DNA of 9,840 bases from a virus (lineage: Duplodnaviria; Heunggongvirae; Uroviricota; Caudoviricetes): IMG/VR virus record IMGVR_UViG_2693429623_000020; one strand, 5' to 3'. The notes beneath the pieces are model-generated. The model saw nothing but the letters and a program-made list of their open reading frames with translations. It ran no database searches and was not told the DNA's origin. Position numbers and translations under genes: made by a program. Shown one piece after another: positions 1 to 9,840 of the stretch (positions are counted from its first letter, which is position 1; every line of letters begins with the position of its first letter).

Positions 1-1239
1 ATGAGCAGCGCAATTCATAGACTTAGCGACACTCTTTTACGAAAATTAAGCGGATCACCAACCACAAAAAACGCCTTTTTTAATGACGGTGGCAATCTTA
101 GCGTAAGACATTCCACCAGCGGCCTGTTAACCTGGTATTTCACTTACAGGGCCGGAACTGGCAGGCAGGTATCACCGGAACGCCTGAGACTGGGCAACTA
201 TCCCGATCTGAGCCTGAAAGCAGCCAGGGAAAAAGCGGCACAGTGTCGCGCCTGGCTGGCGGAGGGGAAAAATCCACGCCATGAGCTTAATCACACAGTG
301 CAGGAAGCGTTAGCCCCTGTGACGGTTAAGGACGCGCTCACTTACTGGCTTGAGTCGTATGCGAAGGAAAAGCGCACTGACCACGAATCACTGAAAAGCC
401 GTATCAATAAGCACATAATCAGCCAGATTGGTGCTATGCCGCTGGATAAATGCGAGCTACGCCACTGGCTGGCCTGTTTTGACCAGCTTGCTAAGCGTAA
501 TCCGGTATCAGCCGGCTTTTTGTTGCAGGTATGCAAACAGGCGCTTAAGTACTGCCGTAAACGTCGCTACGCCGTCAGTAACGTTCTTGATGATATGGTC
601 GTAGGTGATGTGGGAAAAAAAGCAGAAATAAGCGAGCGAGTGCTAACAAACAAGGAGCTTGGCGAGCTACTCCGCGCACTGGATGAAAAAATTTTCCCGC
701 CGTACTACAGCGCTTTAATTCGCCTTCTGATTGTCTTCGGATGCCGCACCACTGAGCTAAGACGCTCCGAGGTTCGGGAATGGGATTTTAAAGAAATGCT
801 CTGGACTGTGCCGAAAGAACACAGCAAAACGAAGGTAGCAATATTCAGGCCAATACCGGAAGCGATCTTGCCGTTCGTCATGAAGCTGGTGGAGCAGAAC
901 AGGCACACGGGCTTATTGCTTGGAGAACTGAAAGGGCAATCATCCGTAGCAGAGTACGGAAGAACGGCACACAGACGCATTAATCAAACCCCCTGGTCGT
1001 TGCACGACATCCGGCACACATTTACAACCATGCTGAACGATTTAGGCGTGGATCCGCATATTGTCGAACAGCTTACTGCCCACCAGATGCCAGGAATGCA
1101 ACGCGTCTATAACCACTCCCGTTATCTCGATGCAAAGCGTGACGCTCTTAATCTATGGGTAGACCGTCTCGAGCTTCTCCAGAACAATGATGAAAAAATC
1201 GTTGTTATGACCCCGCGAATTTACCCCCAAAATTCTTGA
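1..1239 (+). CDS. int: Tyrosine recombinase / site-specific integrase, P4-type (412 aa)
   Basis: N-terminus LSDT..K.....DGGNL.....SG...W.F.YR fits the P4-type integrase N-terminal domain; C-terminal region has HDIRHTF and RVYNHSRY consistent with the His/Arg/Tyr catalytic residues. ATG at position 1, stop at 1237-1239. Confidence 0.9.
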   Translation: MSSAIHRLSDTLLRKLSGSPTTKNAFFNDGGNLSVRHSTSGLLTWYFTYRAGTGRQVSPERLRLGNYPDLSLKAAREKAAQCRAWLAEGKNPRHELNHTVQEALAPVTVKDALTYWLESYAKEKRTDHESLKSRINKHIISQIGAMPLDKCELRHWLACFDQLAKRNPVSAGFLLQVCKQALKYCRKRRYAVSNVLDDMVVGDVGKKAEISERVLTNKELGELLRALDEKIFPPYYSALIRLLIVFGCRTTELRRSEVREWDFKEMLWTVPKEHSKTKVAIFRPIPEAILPFVMKLVEQNRHTGLLLGELKGQSSVAEYGRTAHRRINQTPWSLHDIRHTFTTMLNDLGVDPHIVEQLTAHQMPGMQRVYNHSRYLDAKRDALNLWVDRLELLQNNDEKIVVMTPRIYPQNS

Positions 1240-1656: not shown

Positions 1657-1866
1657 ATGCGTGAAATAAATGAAGATCGCGTAATCCGTGAGGATGAATG
1701 TCGTAAGTTAACTGGAGTGTGTCGCACTACACGCTACGAACTGGAGAAAAAAGGGAGCTTTCCGTCTCGCCGTAATCTTGGTGGGCGTTCTGTAGGTTGG
1801 CTGCTGTCCGAGGTTATGGAATGGGTTAAAAGCCGGGATCGCATTAATTCAGGTAAGGCAGCGTAA
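1657..1866 (+). CDS. alpA: AlpA-family phage regulatory protein (excisionase-like HTH), 69 aa
   Basis: Translation MREINEDRVIREDECRKLTGVCRTTRYELEKKGSFPSRRNLGGRSVGWLLSEVMEWVKSR follows the AlpA pattern (TG..R.T.Y......FP....LG.+SVGW...E...W). Start chosen at the internal ATG 1657 (AGG 7 nt upstream) rather than the ORF-track start 1570. Confidence 0.8.
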   Translation: MREINEDRVIREDECRKLTGVCRTTRYELEKKGSFPSRRNLGGRSVGWLLSEVMEWVKSRDRINSGKAA

Positions 1867-5643: not shown

Positions 5644-5889
5644 ATGACAGCGAAGCACACAAAAAAATCACAATCGCACGCCCTTGATTTGACGGAACAC
5701 TGGTTAAGGGTGTCGATAAAAATCATCGACCGCAACGCCGGGGAAGGATATGCGAAAGCACATCCCGAACTGATTAGCTCATTCATGACAACGGCAGCTG
5801 CAAACTTTGCCACGCTGACAGAACGGGAGATTGCCGAAGCGGAACAGGTGACAACCATCAACGTTAAAACCGGAGAGCAGACAGCATGA
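5644..5889 (+). CDS. Hypothetical protein (81 aa)
   Basis: ORF whose stop overlaps the start of the SSB-like gene (ATGA at 5886-5889). Weak RBS; no recognisable motif. Confidence 0.45.
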   Translation: MTAKHTKKSQSHALDLTEHWLRVSIKIIDRNAGEGYAKAHPELISSFMTTAAANFATLTEREIAEAEQVTTINVKTGEQTA

Positions 5890-6269
5890 CAGCACAGATA
5901 GCGGCTTACGGGCGGCTGGTGGCTGACCCGCAGTTAAAGACCACCAGCAAGGGTACACAAATGACGATGGCGAGTATGGCGGTCCCACTTCCGTGCAGCC
6001 AGGCAGATGACGGAACGGCGACGATGTGGTTATCCGTCCTGGCGTTTGGCAGACAGGCCGAAGCACTGGCAAAGCACCGCAAGGGCGAACTCCTGAGCGT
6101 GGCGGGTAACATGCAGGTGAGCCAGTGGACCGGACAGAACGGGGAGACGCGGCAGGGCTGGCAGGTTATCGCAGACAGCGTAATCAGTGCGAGAACGGCG
6201 CGACCGGGCGGCAAAAAAGGCCAACAGGCGGGAAATGATGATCCGTACGGGGATAACATACCGTTTTAA
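5886..6269 (+). CDS. ssb: Single-stranded DNA-binding protein-like (OB fold with SSB-type acidic C-terminal tip), 127 aa
   Basis: Ends in DDPYGDNIPF (E. coli SSB ends DDDIPF). The core pattern G.L..DP...W..V..FG..AE.....KG....V.G.......W....G..R matches the SSB OB fold. Confidence 0.65.
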   Translation: MTAQIAAYGRLVADPQLKTTSKGTQMTMASMAVPLPCSQADDGTATMWLSVLAFGRQAEALAKHRKGELLSVAGNMQVSQWTGQNGETRQGWQVIADSVISARTARPGGKKGQQAGNDDPYGDNIPF

Positions 6270-6284
6270 GCAACGAGTAACAGA

Positions 6285-6307
6285 AGCCGGAGCAATCCGG
6301 CTTTTTT
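6285..6307 (+). terminator. Rho-independent terminator after the SSB-like gene
   Basis: Hairpin AGCCGGA-GCAA-TCCGGCT followed by TTTTTT. Confidence 0.7.
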
Positions 6308-6309
6308 AT

Positions 6310-6381
6310 GGGTCCTCCCGGTGTAGTGACCTGCCACGGGGCGGGAGCGTCGCGGAAAAAGGCTGGTTTTTGCATTTTCAT
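6310..6381 (+). other. cos-like element, copy A (lambda cosQ-cosN-like), upstream of the capsid module
   Basis: GGGTCCTCCCGGTG...CCACG GGGCGGGAGCGT CGCGG...TTTTCAT. Lambda's right end/left end junction as I recall it is TTTACGGGTCCTTTCCGGTG...GTTACG | GGGCGGCGACCT | CGCGGGTTTTCGC. 66/72 identical to copy B. Putative 12-nt cohesive end at 6339-6350. Confidence 0.55.
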
Positions 6382-6427
6382 GGCGGCGGCAGCATGTGTA
6401 GTAATTTATTGATAATTAAAAGTTATT

Positions 6428-6525
6428 TCTGTTTTCACCTGTACAATATTTTTTTCTCCCTGTCATTAGACCAGTTTGCAATTAATTGAAATATATAAAT
6501 AAATCTGTTTTTCACCTGCCAGGTG
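6428..6525. promoter_or_regulatory. Capsid-operon leader motifs: two CTGTTTT(T)CACCTG iteron-like repeats and a 13-bp palindrome CACCTGCCAGGTG
   Basis: TCTGTTTTCACCTG at 6428-6441 and TCTGTTTTTCACCTG at 6504-6518; palindrome at 6513-6525. The motifs resemble the ori iteron CTGTTCACC with a T-insertion. Confidence 0.35.
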
Positions 6526-6568
6526 GAGTTGCCTGTGTCAAAACGTGTTCAGATGGCGGGATATTTAT

Positions 6569-6591
6569 GCCGGATTTTATCCGGCTTTTTT
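6569..6591 (+). terminator. Intrinsic terminator-like hairpin inside the capsid-operon leader
   Basis: GCCGGA-TTTTA-TCCGGC followed by TTTTTT; about 100 bp upstream of the capsid-operon start. Confidence 0.5.
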
Positions 6592-6693
6592 GTGTCTGAA
6601 TCTCATTAATCTATTTTTATGATAGAAATATGTTTATCTACCACTTTTATCGATCAATAATGTGCACAGTTTAGTCAGTAAGAGGAAGTTACT

Positions 6694-6900
6694 GTGAGTT
6701 GTATTAATGACCTGAACACGGGCGATATCAGGGGTGGTTCCGTTCATCTGGATGCGCAGACCGTTATGCGCCTTAAGCAGTACAGGATCGACCATATAAA
6801 TCATCATCCTGACAAACCATTACCAGGTGTGGCGCAGATTGTCAGACATGCCGTAAACACCTGGCTTAATCAGAATGGTTTTGCATCGGTGGGGGAATAA
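6694..6900 (+). CDS. Small RHH-like putative DNA-binding protein (68 aa), first gene of the capsid operon
   Basis: GTG start with AGAGGAAG RBS. SVHLDAQTVMRLKQY...VAQIVRHAVNTWLNQ fits a strand-helix-helix pattern. Its stop overlaps the start of the capsid gene (TAATG). Confidence 0.5.
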   Translation: MSCINDLNTGDIRGGSVHLDAQTVMRLKQYRIDHINHHPDKPLPGVAQIVRHAVNTWLNQNGFASVGE

Positions 6901-8813
6901 TGAATCGCTGGTACACCATTAAGGCGGCGGATGTTCGTGGAGCGGCGGATATATCTATCTATGAGGAGATTGGCGGCTTCGGTGTTACTGCAAAGCAGTT
7001 CGCGGAAGACCTGAAAGCCCTTGGCGATGTTTCACATATCAATCTGAGGATCCATTCACCAGGTGGTGATGTGTTTGAAGGCATCGCCATCTATAACCTG
7101 CTACGGAATCATCCGGCAGACATTACGGTTTATATCGATGGTGTTGCGGCTTCAATGGCTTCGGTGGTCGCAATGGCTGGCGATCGTGTAGTGATGCCGG
7201 AGAACGCCATGATGATGATCCATAAACCGTGGGGGATCTCTGGCGGAAATGCTGGCGATATGCGTGATTATGCTGATTTGCTGGATAAGGTGGAAACCGT
7301 GTTAATCCCTGCTTATGCCAGAAAAACGGGCAAATCAGCACAGGAAATTACCGCCATGCTGGAGGATGAAACCTGGATGGATGGGAAAGAATGCCTTAAG
7401 CACGGTTTTGCTGATGAATTGTTGCCATCCGTCAGAGCAATGGCGCGAATTGAATCGAAACGCACAGGAGATTTTTTACATATGCCGGAAACCATTAAAG
7501 GAATGATTACACCGCCACAGGGAGCGGCAAATATTGCTGGTAATGAACAGAAGCGCATCAATGGAATAAGTGAAGTGTTTAGCCTGTTCGGCAGTCGTTA
7601 CGACGGGATCAAAATGGCGTGTCTGGAAGATGCATCATGTACACCGGAAATGGCCCGTGAAAAGCTGTTGAACGAGCTGGGGCGCGAGTCCACGCCATCC
7701 AATAAAAATACCCCGCCTCATATCTATGCTGGAAACGGAAACATAACAGGTGATGCAATTCGTCAGGGGCTTTATTCCCGTCTTGGGTATGAACGGCCTG
7801 AACGAGGCAACCCTTACGCGATGATGAGTCTTTTTGAAATGGCCCAGGCATCACTGGTTGATCGTGGTATCACTGTGAGCGGTTTTATTAATCGCTCGCA
7901 GGTTGTTAATGCGGCTTTTACACACAGCAGCAGTGATTTTTCTCATATTCTGGCTGGTGGGGCTGAAAAATCTGTACTGAAAGGCTGGCAGGACAGCGGC
8001 GAAACGTTCCAGAAATGGACGCGTACCGGTTCGCTTTCAAACTTTCATGAAGCAAAGCGCGTTGGTCTGAATGGTTTTTCAAAGCTGGATAAAGTACCGG
8101 AAGGTGCGGAATATAAATACATCACCACCAGCGATAAAGGTGTACCTATTGCGCTGGCCACGTACGGGAATATATTTTCCGTTACCCGTCAGGCCATTAT
8201 CAACGATGACCTGACCCAGTTAACTACAATCCCCATGGCGATGGGACGCGCAGCTGCCAGAACAGTTGGCAATCTGGTTTATCTCCTGTTAACCAGCAAC
8301 GGCAAGTTTACGGATGGTAAAGCGTTATTCCATGCCGATCATAAAAATCTTATTGCGAAGGATATGGACATGGAGGGGCTTAACGAAGCCCGTAAGCTGA
8401 TGCGCCTCCAGGAAGACGCTAACGGCGATTCGCTGAATATTACCCCTGCATTTGTCCTGGTCCCCGCCGCGCTGGAGTCTGCCGCACATCGCGCCATTCT
8501 GTCATCGTCATCACTCTTTCCGGTTGATGGCGTGGGCACTATCAATCAGAACCCCGGCATCATTAACGTGGTGAAAGATATGGCGGAGGTAATCGTTGAG
8601 CCACGTCTTGATAAAGCCAATAACAAGGAGTGGTATGTGGCAGCGGCGAAGGGTATGGACACGATAGAGGTCGCTTATCTTGATGGTATTGATACGCCAT
8701 ATCTTGAGGAGCAGGAGGGCTTTACTGTTGATGGCGTCGCCTGGAAGGTGCGCATAGATGCAGGTGTAGCGGCCCTCGACTATCGCGGATTACTGAAATC
8801 GAGTGGAGCATGA
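6900..8813 (+). CDS. ClpP-like (S14) prohead protease fused to an HK97-fold major capsid protein (637 aa)
   Basis: N-terminal about 190 aa contain DGVAASMASVVAMAG and MMIHKPWGISGG, matching the ClpP active-site Ser and His motifs (GQAASMGAF / MIHQPLGG). The C-terminal 350 aa (..TIEVAYLDG..FTVDGVAWKVRIDAGVAALDYRG) resemble HK97-like major capsid proteins. GGGGGAA RBS. Confidence 0.85.
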   Translation: MNRWYTIKAADVRGAADISIYEEIGGFGVTAKQFAEDLKALGDVSHINLRIHSPGGDVFEGIAIYNLLRNHPADITVYIDGVAASMASVVAMAGDRVVMPENAMMMIHKPWGISGGNAGDMRDYADLLDKVETVLIPAYARKTGKSAQEITAMLEDETWMDGKECLKHGFADELLPSVRAMARIESKRTGDFLHMPETIKGMITPPQGAANIAGNEQKRINGISEVFSLFGSRYDGIKMACLEDASCTPEMAREKLLNELGRESTPSNKNTPPHIYAGNGNITGDAIRQGLYSRLGYERPERGNPYAMMSLFEMAQASLVDRGITVSGFINRSQVVNAAFTHSSSDFSHILAGGAEKSVLKGWQDSGETFQKWTRTGSLSNFHEAKRVGLNGFSKLDKVPEGAEYKYITTSDKGVPIALATYGNIFSVTRQAIINDDLTQLTTIPMAMGRAAARTVGNLVYLLLTSNGKFTDGKALFHADHKNLIAKDMDMEGLNEARKLMRLQEDANGDSLNITPAFVLVPAALESAAHRAILSSSSLFPVDGVGTINQNPGIINVVKDMAEVIVEPRLDKANNKEWYVAAAKGMDTIEVAYLDGIDTPYLEEQEGFTVDGVAWKVRIDAGVAALDYRGLLKSSGA

Positions 8814-8820
8814 CAACAAG

Positions 8821-8843
8821 GGCGGCGATAGCCGCCTTTTTTT
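8821..8843 (+). terminator. Rho-independent terminator after the capsid gene
   Basis: Hairpin GGCGGC-GATA-GCCGCC followed by TTTTTTT. Confidence 0.7.
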
Positions 8844-8845
8844 AC

Positions 8846-8917
8846 GGGTCCTCCCGGTGGGGTGGTCTGCCACGGGGCGGGAGCGGCGCGGAAAAAGGCT
8901 AGTTTTTGCATTTTCAT
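8846..8917 (+). other. cos-like element, copy B (lambda cosQ-cosN-like), about 150 bp upstream of the Nu1-like terminase gene
   Basis: TTTACGGGTCCTCCCGGTG...CCACG GGGCGGGAGCGG CGCGG...TTTTCAT. Same arrangement as lambda, where cos precedes Nu1. Putative 12-nt cohesive end at 8875-8886. Confidence 0.6.
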
Positions 8918-9070
8918 TCGTCATCATCATCTTCATATTGTATTGAATTTTAAGTATTTTTATTTTTGGTATGTTAATTTTGCTTGTTTTATGCTCAACA
9001 TATAGCGCATTTTTTGACCTCTTCTGAAAGTTGTTCGCAAGATGCATGTTTAAAACATTCTGGAGCGGGT

Positions 9071-9556
9071 ATGGATCGAGAACTGAAAAATCTGATGCTG
9101 AACATTAATCAACTGGCGGCGATAGCGGGAATATGTCGTCAGACTGCGGCGGCAAGGCTGAAAAACATCCAGCCAGCCGGAGGGCATGACAAGCTGAAAC
9201 TCTATCGGGTGACTGACATTCTGACCTGTTTTCTTGATCTTCCCGTTCCGGCATCACTGGAAGAAATGGAGCCACATGACCGTAAGGCCTGGTATCAGTC
9301 CGAACGTGAACGCCTCAAGTTCGAACAGGAAACGGCGCAACTCATACCCGCCGATGATGTGCGAAAAGAGATGGCTATATGGGGAGAAATCGTAAGCGAG
9401 GAACTGGCAAAACTCCCCAATATTCTGGCACGTGATGCCGGGCTTAAACCGATGGCAGTAAACAGAGTGCAGTCAATTATTGACGATTTGTGTAATCAGA
9501 TTATCAGCCGGATGGTAAAAAATGACGTAGTGAATGAGGTCGCAAAACAGGCATGA
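9071..9556 (+). CDS. Terminase small subunit-like protein (lambda Nu1-like N-terminal winged HTH), 161 aa
   Basis: Start at the internal ATG 9071 (GGAG 5 nt upstream). LNINQLAAIAGICRQTAAARLKNIQPAGGHDKLKLYRVTDILTCF parallels Nu1 VNKKQLADIFGASIRTIQNWQEQGMPVLRGGGKGNEVLYDSAAVIKWY, and it sits just downstream of a cos-like site. It could instead be a packaging-redirection factor (Rpp-like). Confidence 0.6.
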   Translation: MDRELKNLMLNINQLAAIAGICRQTAAARLKNIQPAGGHDKLKLYRVTDILTCFLDLPVPASLEEMEPHDRKAWYQSERERLKFEQETAQLIPADDVRKEMAIWGEIVSEELAKLPNILARDAGLKPMAVNRVQSIIDDLCNQIISRMVKNDVVNEVAKQA

Positions 9557-9840
9557 TAATGACCGAATCTGAAATACTGCGATTAATCCGCTGTGCTGGT
9601 GGAATTAGCCAGTTGGCTGACGAACAGGCCGCGCAGCCAGATACAGTCACCGCTGAAAATTACGCGCGTGTGGTGGCTGAGGTGATGCGCCGTGACGGTA
9701 TTGAGCTTAACGGCGTGGATATGCGCAACATACGAACCAGAGTCCTTGAGTTGCTGGCATACCGTCACCGTTCTCAACAACGGAGGGAGAGCGCGAAAAA
9801 TACTTATCAGTGGAAGAAGCCGGAATGGTTGCGGCGGTAA
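9553..9840 (+). CDS. Hypothetical protein (95 aa), translationally coupled to the terminase-like gene
   Basis: ATGA overlap at 9553-9556; stop at the last base of the window. No recognisable motif. Occupies the position where a large terminase would follow Nu1 in lambda. Confidence 0.5.
   Translation: MIMTESEILRLIRCAGGISQLADEQAAQPDTVTAENYARVVAEVMRRDGIELNGVDMRNIRTRVLELLAYRHRSQQRRESAKNTYQWKKPEWLRR

Follow-up and report, generated by a model that had tools for sequence, protein, structure and literature searches.

Why is a gene for a lambda-like small terminase subunit (TerS) followed by a short open reading frame (ORF), at the place where a gene for a large terminase subunit (TerL) would be expected? 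This question is raised by the right end of IMG/VR record IMGVR_UViG_2693429623_000020, a 9,840-nt stretch of Caudoviricetes DNA (the window), in which a cos-like site, a gene for a 161-aa protein and a 95-codon ORF, here called X, follow each other. A first-pass annotation had interpreted this arrangement as that of a helper-dependent island which supplies DNA recognition and borrows the TerL of its helper, or which encodes an Rpp-type redirection factor, with X as a candidate accessory or interference factor. As judged from its gene content, the window belongs to a ~10.5-kb phage satellite of Escherichia coli, a phage-inducible chromosomal island (PICI), whose packaging end is at the right, and sequence comparison identifies the TerS of this island as a chimera of a helper-type recognition half and a C-terminal half found only in satellites. 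The explanation we consider best, with a probability of roughly 0.6, is that the island TerS reads a cos site matched to that of the helper and recruits the large terminase of the helper.

The sequence beyond position 9840 was read in a 99.6%-identical copy of the island in E. coli AR_0011 (NZ_CP024855; L001), which is located between cspD/yljB and clpS. In this copy X is followed by 535 bp of non-coding DNA, the attachment (att) core ATGATAGTTATYTATCAT and then clpS; up to clpS there is no large terminase, portal or head gene. The att core, an 18-mer, is also present upstream of int, and the two copies in L001 are 10.86 kb apart. ORFs, profile searches and the RefSeq annotation of the copy likewise revealed no TerL, portal, tail or lysis gene in the island, which must thus borrow TerL, portal and tails from a helper. 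The notion of a helper-dependent island that contributes DNA recognition through cos and TerS is therefore well founded. A circular island of this type with a single att core at its junction has been deposited as 'plasmid pZ1323HEC0475-3' (NZ_CP148328.1, 1-10790; L028), and by its sequence this 10,790-bp circle is the excised form of the island; in this variant, the stretch from the capsid gene to the cos site preceding terS also contains a tail-assembly gene and a fragment of a tail gene. The repeat AATGGTGTAGTTAATTTT was rejected as att because the junction of the circular form places the core at ATGATAGTTATYTATCAT. Together with nearby TTGTTCG motifs, this repeat lies inside the element near both ends (L001 2861 and 13490; window about -38) and probably represents arm-type binding sites of the integrase and not the crossover core.

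Gram-negative PICIs have been defined previously (PMC6092414), and at the sequence level the element is a member of this group: it is an att-flanked island whose size lies in the expected range of ~10-15 kb, with int at one end, alpA and a primase/replication module follow int in the same orientation, and most virion, lysis and terminase-motor genes are missing, with only a capsid fusion and TerS present. According to the ORF list and profile searches, all genes of the window point in one direction and read as a single element (Table 1). Of 5426 complete E. coli genomes, 192 (~3.5%) contain the arrangement of cos, TerS and X at a coverage of at least 80%, and islands built in this way are also present at another chromosomal site, where the integrase is a different one.

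Table 1. Features of the 9,840-nt window
Feature	Position	Strand	Basis or remark
Tyrosine integrase (int)	1-1239	+	profile search
AlpA regulator	about 1660-1866	+	Phage_AlpA 3.6e-16
DUF4222 protein	between AlpA and primase in gene order	+	profile search
D5_N/DUF5906/Pox_D5 primase, 610 aa	3524-5356	+	profile search
SSB	5886-6269	+	profile search
cos1	6302-6381	+	second direct cosQ-cosN copy, 91% identical to cos2, 2536 bp upstream
68-aa ORF, phrog_4934 (function unassigned)	6694-6900	+	TAATG overlap with capsid start codon
ClpP-like prohead protease/major capsid protein fusion, 637 aa	6900-8813	+	packaging module
Terminator-like hairpin and T-run closing the capsid gene, directly before cos2	8821-8845	+	GGCGGCGATAGCCGCC then T7
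cos2	8846-8917	+	cosQ GGGTCCT 8846-8852; predicted cosN GGGCGGGAGCGG 8875-8886; conserved right flank
cosB-like AT-rich spacer between cosN and terS, presumed TerS-binding region	8887-9070	+	sequence comparison
TerS, 161 aa, DUF1441 family	9071-9556	+	Pfam, phrog, phi458 TerS
X, 93 aa with the more likely start at ATG 9559, 95 aa with ATG 9553	9553-9840	+	phrog_1561 8e-51

The protein encoded upstream of X belongs to a family of small terminases. It matches Pfam DUF1441 (1.3e-35, 122.9 bits at a cutoff of 35.1, residues 10-148) and phrog_141 'terminase small subunit' (6.7e-57, 192.8 bits), and is 67% identical to the annotated TerS of phage phi458 over residues 1-151. The phage collection yielded 57 homologues, among them those of mEp460, mEp213, Stx phages and Gifsy-2. 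The gene is followed by that of a GpA-type large terminase of 700 aa in phi458, mEp460 and prophage L016, the three for which annotations were read. Pfam Phage_Nu1 (PF07471) was not matched at E<=0.1, and neither TerS nor X has sequence matches in the PDB, including the solved Rpp and Nu1 chains. By family (DUF1441, phrog_141) the protein is a small terminase, but it is 'Nu1-like' only in gene position and, weakly, in the fold of its winged-helix domain, and not in the sense of a match to Phage_Nu1. The difference in length between the island protein and Nu1 (161 versus 181 aa), to which the first-pass annotation had attached significance, carries no meaning because the orthologues of helper phages also comprise only 163-166 aa. 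Three parts can be distinguished: a winged-helix DNA-binding domain (residues 1 to ~65), a conserved central helix (~66-96) and a satellite-specific half (~97-161). The AlphaFold2 model (pLDDT 79) has a helix-turn-helix and a beta-hairpin at the N-terminus and long helices after them, and its top Foldseek neighbours are the MerR-family proteins BrlR, MtaN and BmrR as well as the lambda TerS/Rpp entry 6hn7_B (E 0.28), all with E>0.1. The modelled N-terminal domain is consistent with a Nu1-like DNA-binding domain; matches as weak as these do not prove it.

The window contains an 80-nt direct repeat (6302-6381 and 8838-8917), each copy of which comprises GGGTCCT and, 22 nt further on, GGGCGGGAGCG(G/T)CGCGG. 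Lambda-type sites, as found in the lambda-like prophage of EDL933 and in Rpp-type PICIs, read GGGTCCT-N23-GGGCGGCGACCTCGCGG; this similar layout indicates that the repeat represents a sister type of cosQ-cosN unit. The copy preceding terS, cos2, has a nearly identical counterpart before the terS genes of phi458, mEp460 and prophage L016, and it runs parallel to the lambda-type cos in L011. With a cosQ, a cosN-like GGGCGGGAGCGG and counterparts in front of phage TerS genes, the cos-like site recognized in the first reading of the locus is genuine. The two copies bracket the capsid gene, and a helper-like cosB and terS follow cos2 only. This cosB is 98-100% identical to that of prophage L016 and 60-75% identical to that of phi458, and the type of cosB co-varies with that of the DNA-binding domain of TerS (L018 versus phi458).

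The chimeric make-up of TerS becomes apparent in comparison with helper-type elements. L016/L017 is a lambdoid prophage with TerS, a 700-aa GpA TerL, portal, a 675-aa fusion of ClpP-like protease and major capsid protein (ClpP/MCP), and tail genes. Window positions 8880-9279, which include the right half of cosN, cosB and TerS codons 1-70, show ~100% DNA identity to this prophage, and from position 9360 on identity drops to 52-65%. Similarly, island L018 is 95-100% identical to the isolated phage phi458 across cosB and the DNA-binding domain, and 52-68% thereafter. For TerS residues 1-65, both nonsynonymous (dN) and synonymous (dS) divergence are 0 between the window and L016 and between L018 and phi458, whereas dS is ~1.1 between the two types of DNA-binding domain. 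For residues 97-150 the relationships are reversed, with dS <= 0.03 within islands and within phages, versus a dN of ~0.34 and saturated dS between islands and phages. This systematic checkerboard is the basis on which we regard TerS as a chimera. One and the same C-terminal half, ending in ...AKLPNILARDAGLKPMAVNRVQSIIDDLCNQIISRMVKNDVVNEVAKQA, is common to three islands with three different DNA-binding domains. The TerS proteins of Enterobacterales phages end in an acidic tail (e.g. ...LRVTEAGADDEEELQQEE), in whose place all island copies have a different sequence; of the 120 best homologues, 17 have the island tail and 89 the acidic phage tail, and none of the 57 homologues in the phage database aligns past residue ~150-157. 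The central helix RKAWYQSERERLKFEQETAQLIP, on the other hand, hardly differs between the TerS proteins of islands and phages. TerL binding by lambda Nu1 has been assigned to residues 100-181 (PMC6739421, citing Frackman 1985 and Wu 1988). The satellite-private half corresponds to this part of Nu1, which also oligomerizes, and it is thus the place where contact with the motor would be expected. Our literature search found no description of a DUF1441-type satellite TerS, of its domain chimerism, or of X. A third type of TerS C-terminus (in proteins of 182-188 aa), with another tail, was noted on the short metagenomic contigs L021 (445-1011; P0170) and L023 (P0173). L021 contains no TerL or X within 800 bp downstream of this gene, and its downstream DNA resembles window positions ~1844-1975; this TerS type may belong to another satellite lineage.

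From these features we infer the following course of packaging. After excision and replication of the island, the winged-helix domain of its TerS would bind cosB beside cos2, and TerS would recruit the GpA-type TerL of a helper prophage, which would cut cosN and pump island DNA into heads, with packaging running from cos to cos. A helper-type terminase is encoded in 1953 of the 5426 genomes (~36%). The heads would probably be small capsids formed by the protease-capsid fusion of the island on the helper portal. This fusion matches Pfam CLP_protease and Phage_capsid_4 as well as NCBIfam scaf_prot_MCP1 (6.8e-272) and shows only 64-71% DNA identity to the 652-675-aa orthologue of the helper; its divergence and the lack of an island portal suggest a Ccm-like, capsid-size-redirecting role. 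The recognition cassette, i.e. cosB and the DNA-binding domain of TerS, would be swapped with helper phages through recombination, which would keep the island readable to the machinery of the local helper. The satellite-only C-terminal half would then be the likely seat of the advantage of the island, conceivably by capturing TerL, by avoiding mixed oligomers or by choosing the prohead.

Several points weigh against this explanation. As cosB and the DNA-binding domain are identical to those of the helper, TerS alone cannot discriminate island from phage DNA, and without such discrimination the benefit of encoding a TerS is left unexplained. The loss of the conserved acidic tail could mean that the island TerS is unable to bind TerL at all. 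A sigma-70-like promoter was not found on the plus strand upstream of terS. Finally, the cosN cut site was placed by analogy to lambda, and the single linear phage record, the mEp460_4F5 assembly, which starts with CCACG|GGGCGGGAGCG and ends with ...GGGTCCTCCCGGTGGGGTGGCCTG, has ends that come within 5 nt of the predicted nick but lie 5 nt to the left of the predicted cosN. The start of the mEp460 RefSeq record was rejected as a physical end; this record opens at an over-extended terS call.

The main rival to helper TerL recruitment by the island TerS is an Rpp-like mode of action. Without a TerL-binding tail, the island protein would work only as a hetero-oligomer with helper TerS, which would supply the contact to TerL, and such a redirector would poison phage packaging yet permit packaging of the island. 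The gene is located directly after cos, like rpp in EcCICFT073 (PMC9026076), the acidic phage tail is replaced in every island copy, and a central helix shared almost without change by both partners could mediate mixed oligomers. However, the known Rpps comprise 139-154 aa, are 30-40 residues shorter than helper TerS, and recognize a cosB unlike that of the helper (PMC9026076, PMC6739421). The island protein, in contrast, is of full length (161 versus 163-164 aa in helper-type TerS), with a tail that is replaced and not deleted, and a cosB and DNA-binding domain identical to those of a helper-type prophage indicate that specificity is not redirected. In addition, none of the solved Rpp or TerS chains was matched by sequence, and 6hn7_B is a weak neighbour in fold. 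The Rpp-type alternative of the first-pass annotation is thus in agreement with the position of the gene and the loss of the helper-type tail, but not with its length, its recognition cassette or the database matches, and we consider it unlikely. Far less probable still is that the locus represents a decayed prophage, in which terS and the small ORF would be functionless leftovers of a lambdoid head operon whose terL was deleted. Homology of the capsid fusion, cos and terS to genes of mEp460-type phages and the tail-gene fragments in one variant would fit such a remnant, but the gene set is the backbone of a PICI (int, alpA, primase, SSB) and not that of a prophage, the architecture has been maintained across 192 genomes and different att sites, every ORF is intact with X under purifying selection, the island-type half of TerS is conserved across islands that differ elsewhere, and the island also occurs as an excised circle.

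X is a real gene, as indicated by a dN/dS of 0.2-0.5 at dS values of up to 0.85, which points to purifying selection. The overlap of its first ATG (9553) with the TGA of terS as ATGA was confirmed, and the second in-frame ATG (9559), at which RefSeq and most X homologues start, lies 2 nt past the terS stop codon, so that spacing is tight either way. X has no Pfam family, no Walker A motif, in line with the proposed lack of an ATPase motif, and no resemblance to phi458 TerL. With a pI of 9.7 the protein is basic, and nine of its last 30 residues are lysines or arginines. Its AlphaFold2 model contains three predicted helices at moderate confidence (pLDDT 73), and a fold search of PDB and BFVD with this model revealed no neighbour (best E 0.35-0.74). 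In three kinds of islands, the final gene ahead of attR encodes a homologue with 72-87% identity: in Rpp-type PICIs including EcCICFT073 (72%), where X is located after rppA and an inverted cos site; in capsid-forming PICIs including EcCIEDL933 (72%), where it follows the island TerL, sometimes with an ATGA overlap; and in the present lineage, always after an island-type TerS. DNA homology with the other two island types resumes exactly at the start codon of X. This identifies X as part of the shared backbone and not of a swapped module, and indicates that the packaging module (~6270-9552) is exchanged as a block between conserved flanks. The family is narrow: clustering at 50% identity leaves 35 representatives, of which many are fragments, and a one-genome-per-species scan gave only three loci (Shigella, Pluralibacter, Cedecea); in isolated phages X is missing apart from one partial match. 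In Rpp-type PICIs at cspD-clpS, ORF callers that read through the inverted cos site produce an N-terminal extension, MQKLAFFRDAPAPWQ..., in P0095 and P0109.

X, which closes the late operon in all E. coli PICI lineages examined, most likely acts at a step that these lineages share and not together with this particular TerS. The alternative, a TerS partner that either blocks helper TerS or TerL like Ppi or Gpi, or serves as an adaptor linking the tail-less TerS to TerL, is in our view distinctly improbable, more so than the Rpp-like mode. Its attraction lies in the tight coupling of X to terS, its invariable position after island-type TerS, its basic nature opposite the acidic tail of helper TerS, and the precedents of TerS with Ppi in Staphylococcus aureus pathogenicity islands (SaPIs) and of Gpi with GpsA/B in phage-inducible chromosomal island-like elements (PLEs) (PMC6739421, PMC11417361). 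Yet X also closes Rpp-type and capsid-forming PICIs, whose terminases are unrelated, and homology between islands begins at its start codon, so that the proposal of a partner or interference factor tied to TerS could not be upheld. In addition, when the genes after ori of EcCICFT073 were expressed singly, rppA alone inhibited lambda, and the others left lambda plaques undiminished (PMC6739421), which argues against a general interference role, assuming that X was among the clones. Capsid-forming PICI proteins take no part in packaging of the helper, according to mutants with unchanged helper transfer (10.1101/2022.09.08.507074); these mutants probably excluded X, so that their bearing on it is indirect.

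Several other identities of X were rejected. A remnant of the TerL N-terminus is at odds with the absence of similarity to helper TerL. Matches to DARPins, which would suggest an ankyrin-like or repeat protein, were weak, and two significant matches to giant proteins concerned SEA and TPR repeats and were taken as compositional and spurious. The sole match to a defence protein, BrxA (E 0.007, 14 bits), was discounted. Nor is X likely to be the 'hypothetical gene 1792' of EcCIEDL933, whose mutant showed severely reduced transfer: EDL933_1785 is a 9-kDa protein of CP-933C with an upstream gap of ~400 nt (PMC5120812), and locus-tag arithmetic puts X at ~1795-1798. Judging from the annotation of L012, gene 1792 is probably a head-closure gene or a 60-aa ORF before terS.

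Satellites that supply a TerS and borrow TerL are already known from SaPIs, and PICIs with terS and capsid homologues have been noted earlier (PMC6092414; 10.1101/2022.07.18.500453); the hybrid make-up of the satellite terminase is a new detail in a known kind of system. Rpp-type PICIs such as EcCICFT073 (Fillol-Salom 2018/2019, PMC6092414, PMC6739421) share with the present island the backbone of int, alpA, DUF4222, primase and SSB, the integration sites of its relatives, two cosQ-cosN copies, a TerS-like gene right after cos, a capsid homologue, X as the last gene, and the absence of TerL. However, EcCICFT073 has a truncated Nu1-like Rpp, a private cosB and the lambda-type cos GGGCGGCGACCT, whereas the present island has a full-length DUF1441 TerS, a helper-identical cosB and the mEp460-type cos GGGCGGGAGCGG. 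The capsid genes of EcCICFT073 are gpE-like and gpD-like and not a ClpP/MCP fusion, and its cos sites are inverted and flank rppA (L025 +13529, -14339), in contrast to the direct sites bracketing the capsid gene here. Rpp-type PICIs at cspD-clpS (L006/L007; cos positions ~10066 on the minus strand and 9122 on the plus strand) carry a lambda-type cos before the Nu1-like gene and an inverted mEp460-type cos before X; two types of cos in one island may permit it to exploit two helper families.

Among SaPIs, the SaPI1/SaPIbov1 type encodes its own TerS and Ppi and uses helper TerL, and SaPIbov5 is a cos-type island with helper cos and the capsid homologue Ccm. As in the present island, the satellite contributes TerS and/or helper cos together with a capsid homologue, and the helper contributes TerL, portal and tails; the proteins, however, are unrelated, the hosts are Gram-positive, and SaPI TerS recognizes a private pac site. 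The recognition cassette of the present island is, unlike that of SaPIs, shared with the helper, and no Ppi homologue was identified in the island. Capsid-forming PICIs such as EcCIEDL933 (10.1101/2022.09.08.507074) have the backbone, the terminal gene X and an own major capsid protein in common with it. They differ in encoding portal, connectors, HNH, a P27-type TerS and their own TerL, so that only tails are taken from the helper; the present island, with its protease-capsid fusion and TerS only, falls outside this group (compare L008-L010, L012). The TerS proteins of mEp460/phi458/Gifsy-2-type phages (DUF1441, phrog_141) are homologous up to residue ~150 and have the same position after cos, and in some of these phages the DNA-binding domain and cosB are identical to those of the island. 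In contrast to them, residues ~97-161 of the island protein form a separate lineage without the acidic tail, and no GpA TerL follows. PLEs, with Gpi, GpsA, GpsB and pac mimicry (PMC11417361), also combine mimicry of the helper packaging site with packaging specifiers of their own, but their sequences are unrelated to those of the island, their helper is a virulent Vibrio phage, and a demonstrated TerL inhibitor is found on the PLE side only.

Some further observations concern the remainder of the window. The 68-aa ORF upstream of the capsid gene seems to open the packaging module, and a counterpart of the hairpin preceding cos2 is also predicted on the minus strand. In near-identical islands the replication gene is swapped, the primase of the window being replaced by a DUF927 protein of 707 aa in AR_0011 (L001 6307-8430), which is further evidence of modular mosaicism. 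A 348-aa ORF on the plus strand (1877-2923) covers the Icd-like/YlcI region, where RefSeq annotates short genes only, and is probably spurious. A comparison of the whole window with Rfam gave no matches, and thus no C4/IsrK-type immunity RNA at the gathering threshold.

It is tempting to regard the satellite-only half of TerS, possibly together with X, as a new device for packaging piracy. This idea is tentative, and we doubt it more than we favor it. If it is true, the recognition cassette would be copied from the helper, and a private TerL-binding or oligomerization domain would bias the motor towards island DNA or small capsids, a third solution beside Rpp, which changes specificity, and SaPI TerS with Ppi, which combine a private pac site with an inhibitor. 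The checkerboard pattern of TerS amounts to a natural domain-swap experiment, in which satellites have the recognition half in common with helpers but a C-terminal half of their own, and it points to the part of a lambda-like TerS that a satellite needs to keep to itself. It also draws attention to X as a conserved, uncharacterized last gene common to all three E. coli PICI lineages. PICIs carry virulence and defence genes between enterobacteria, and the way in which a PICI lineage captures the motor of its helper decides which phages can mobilize the island.

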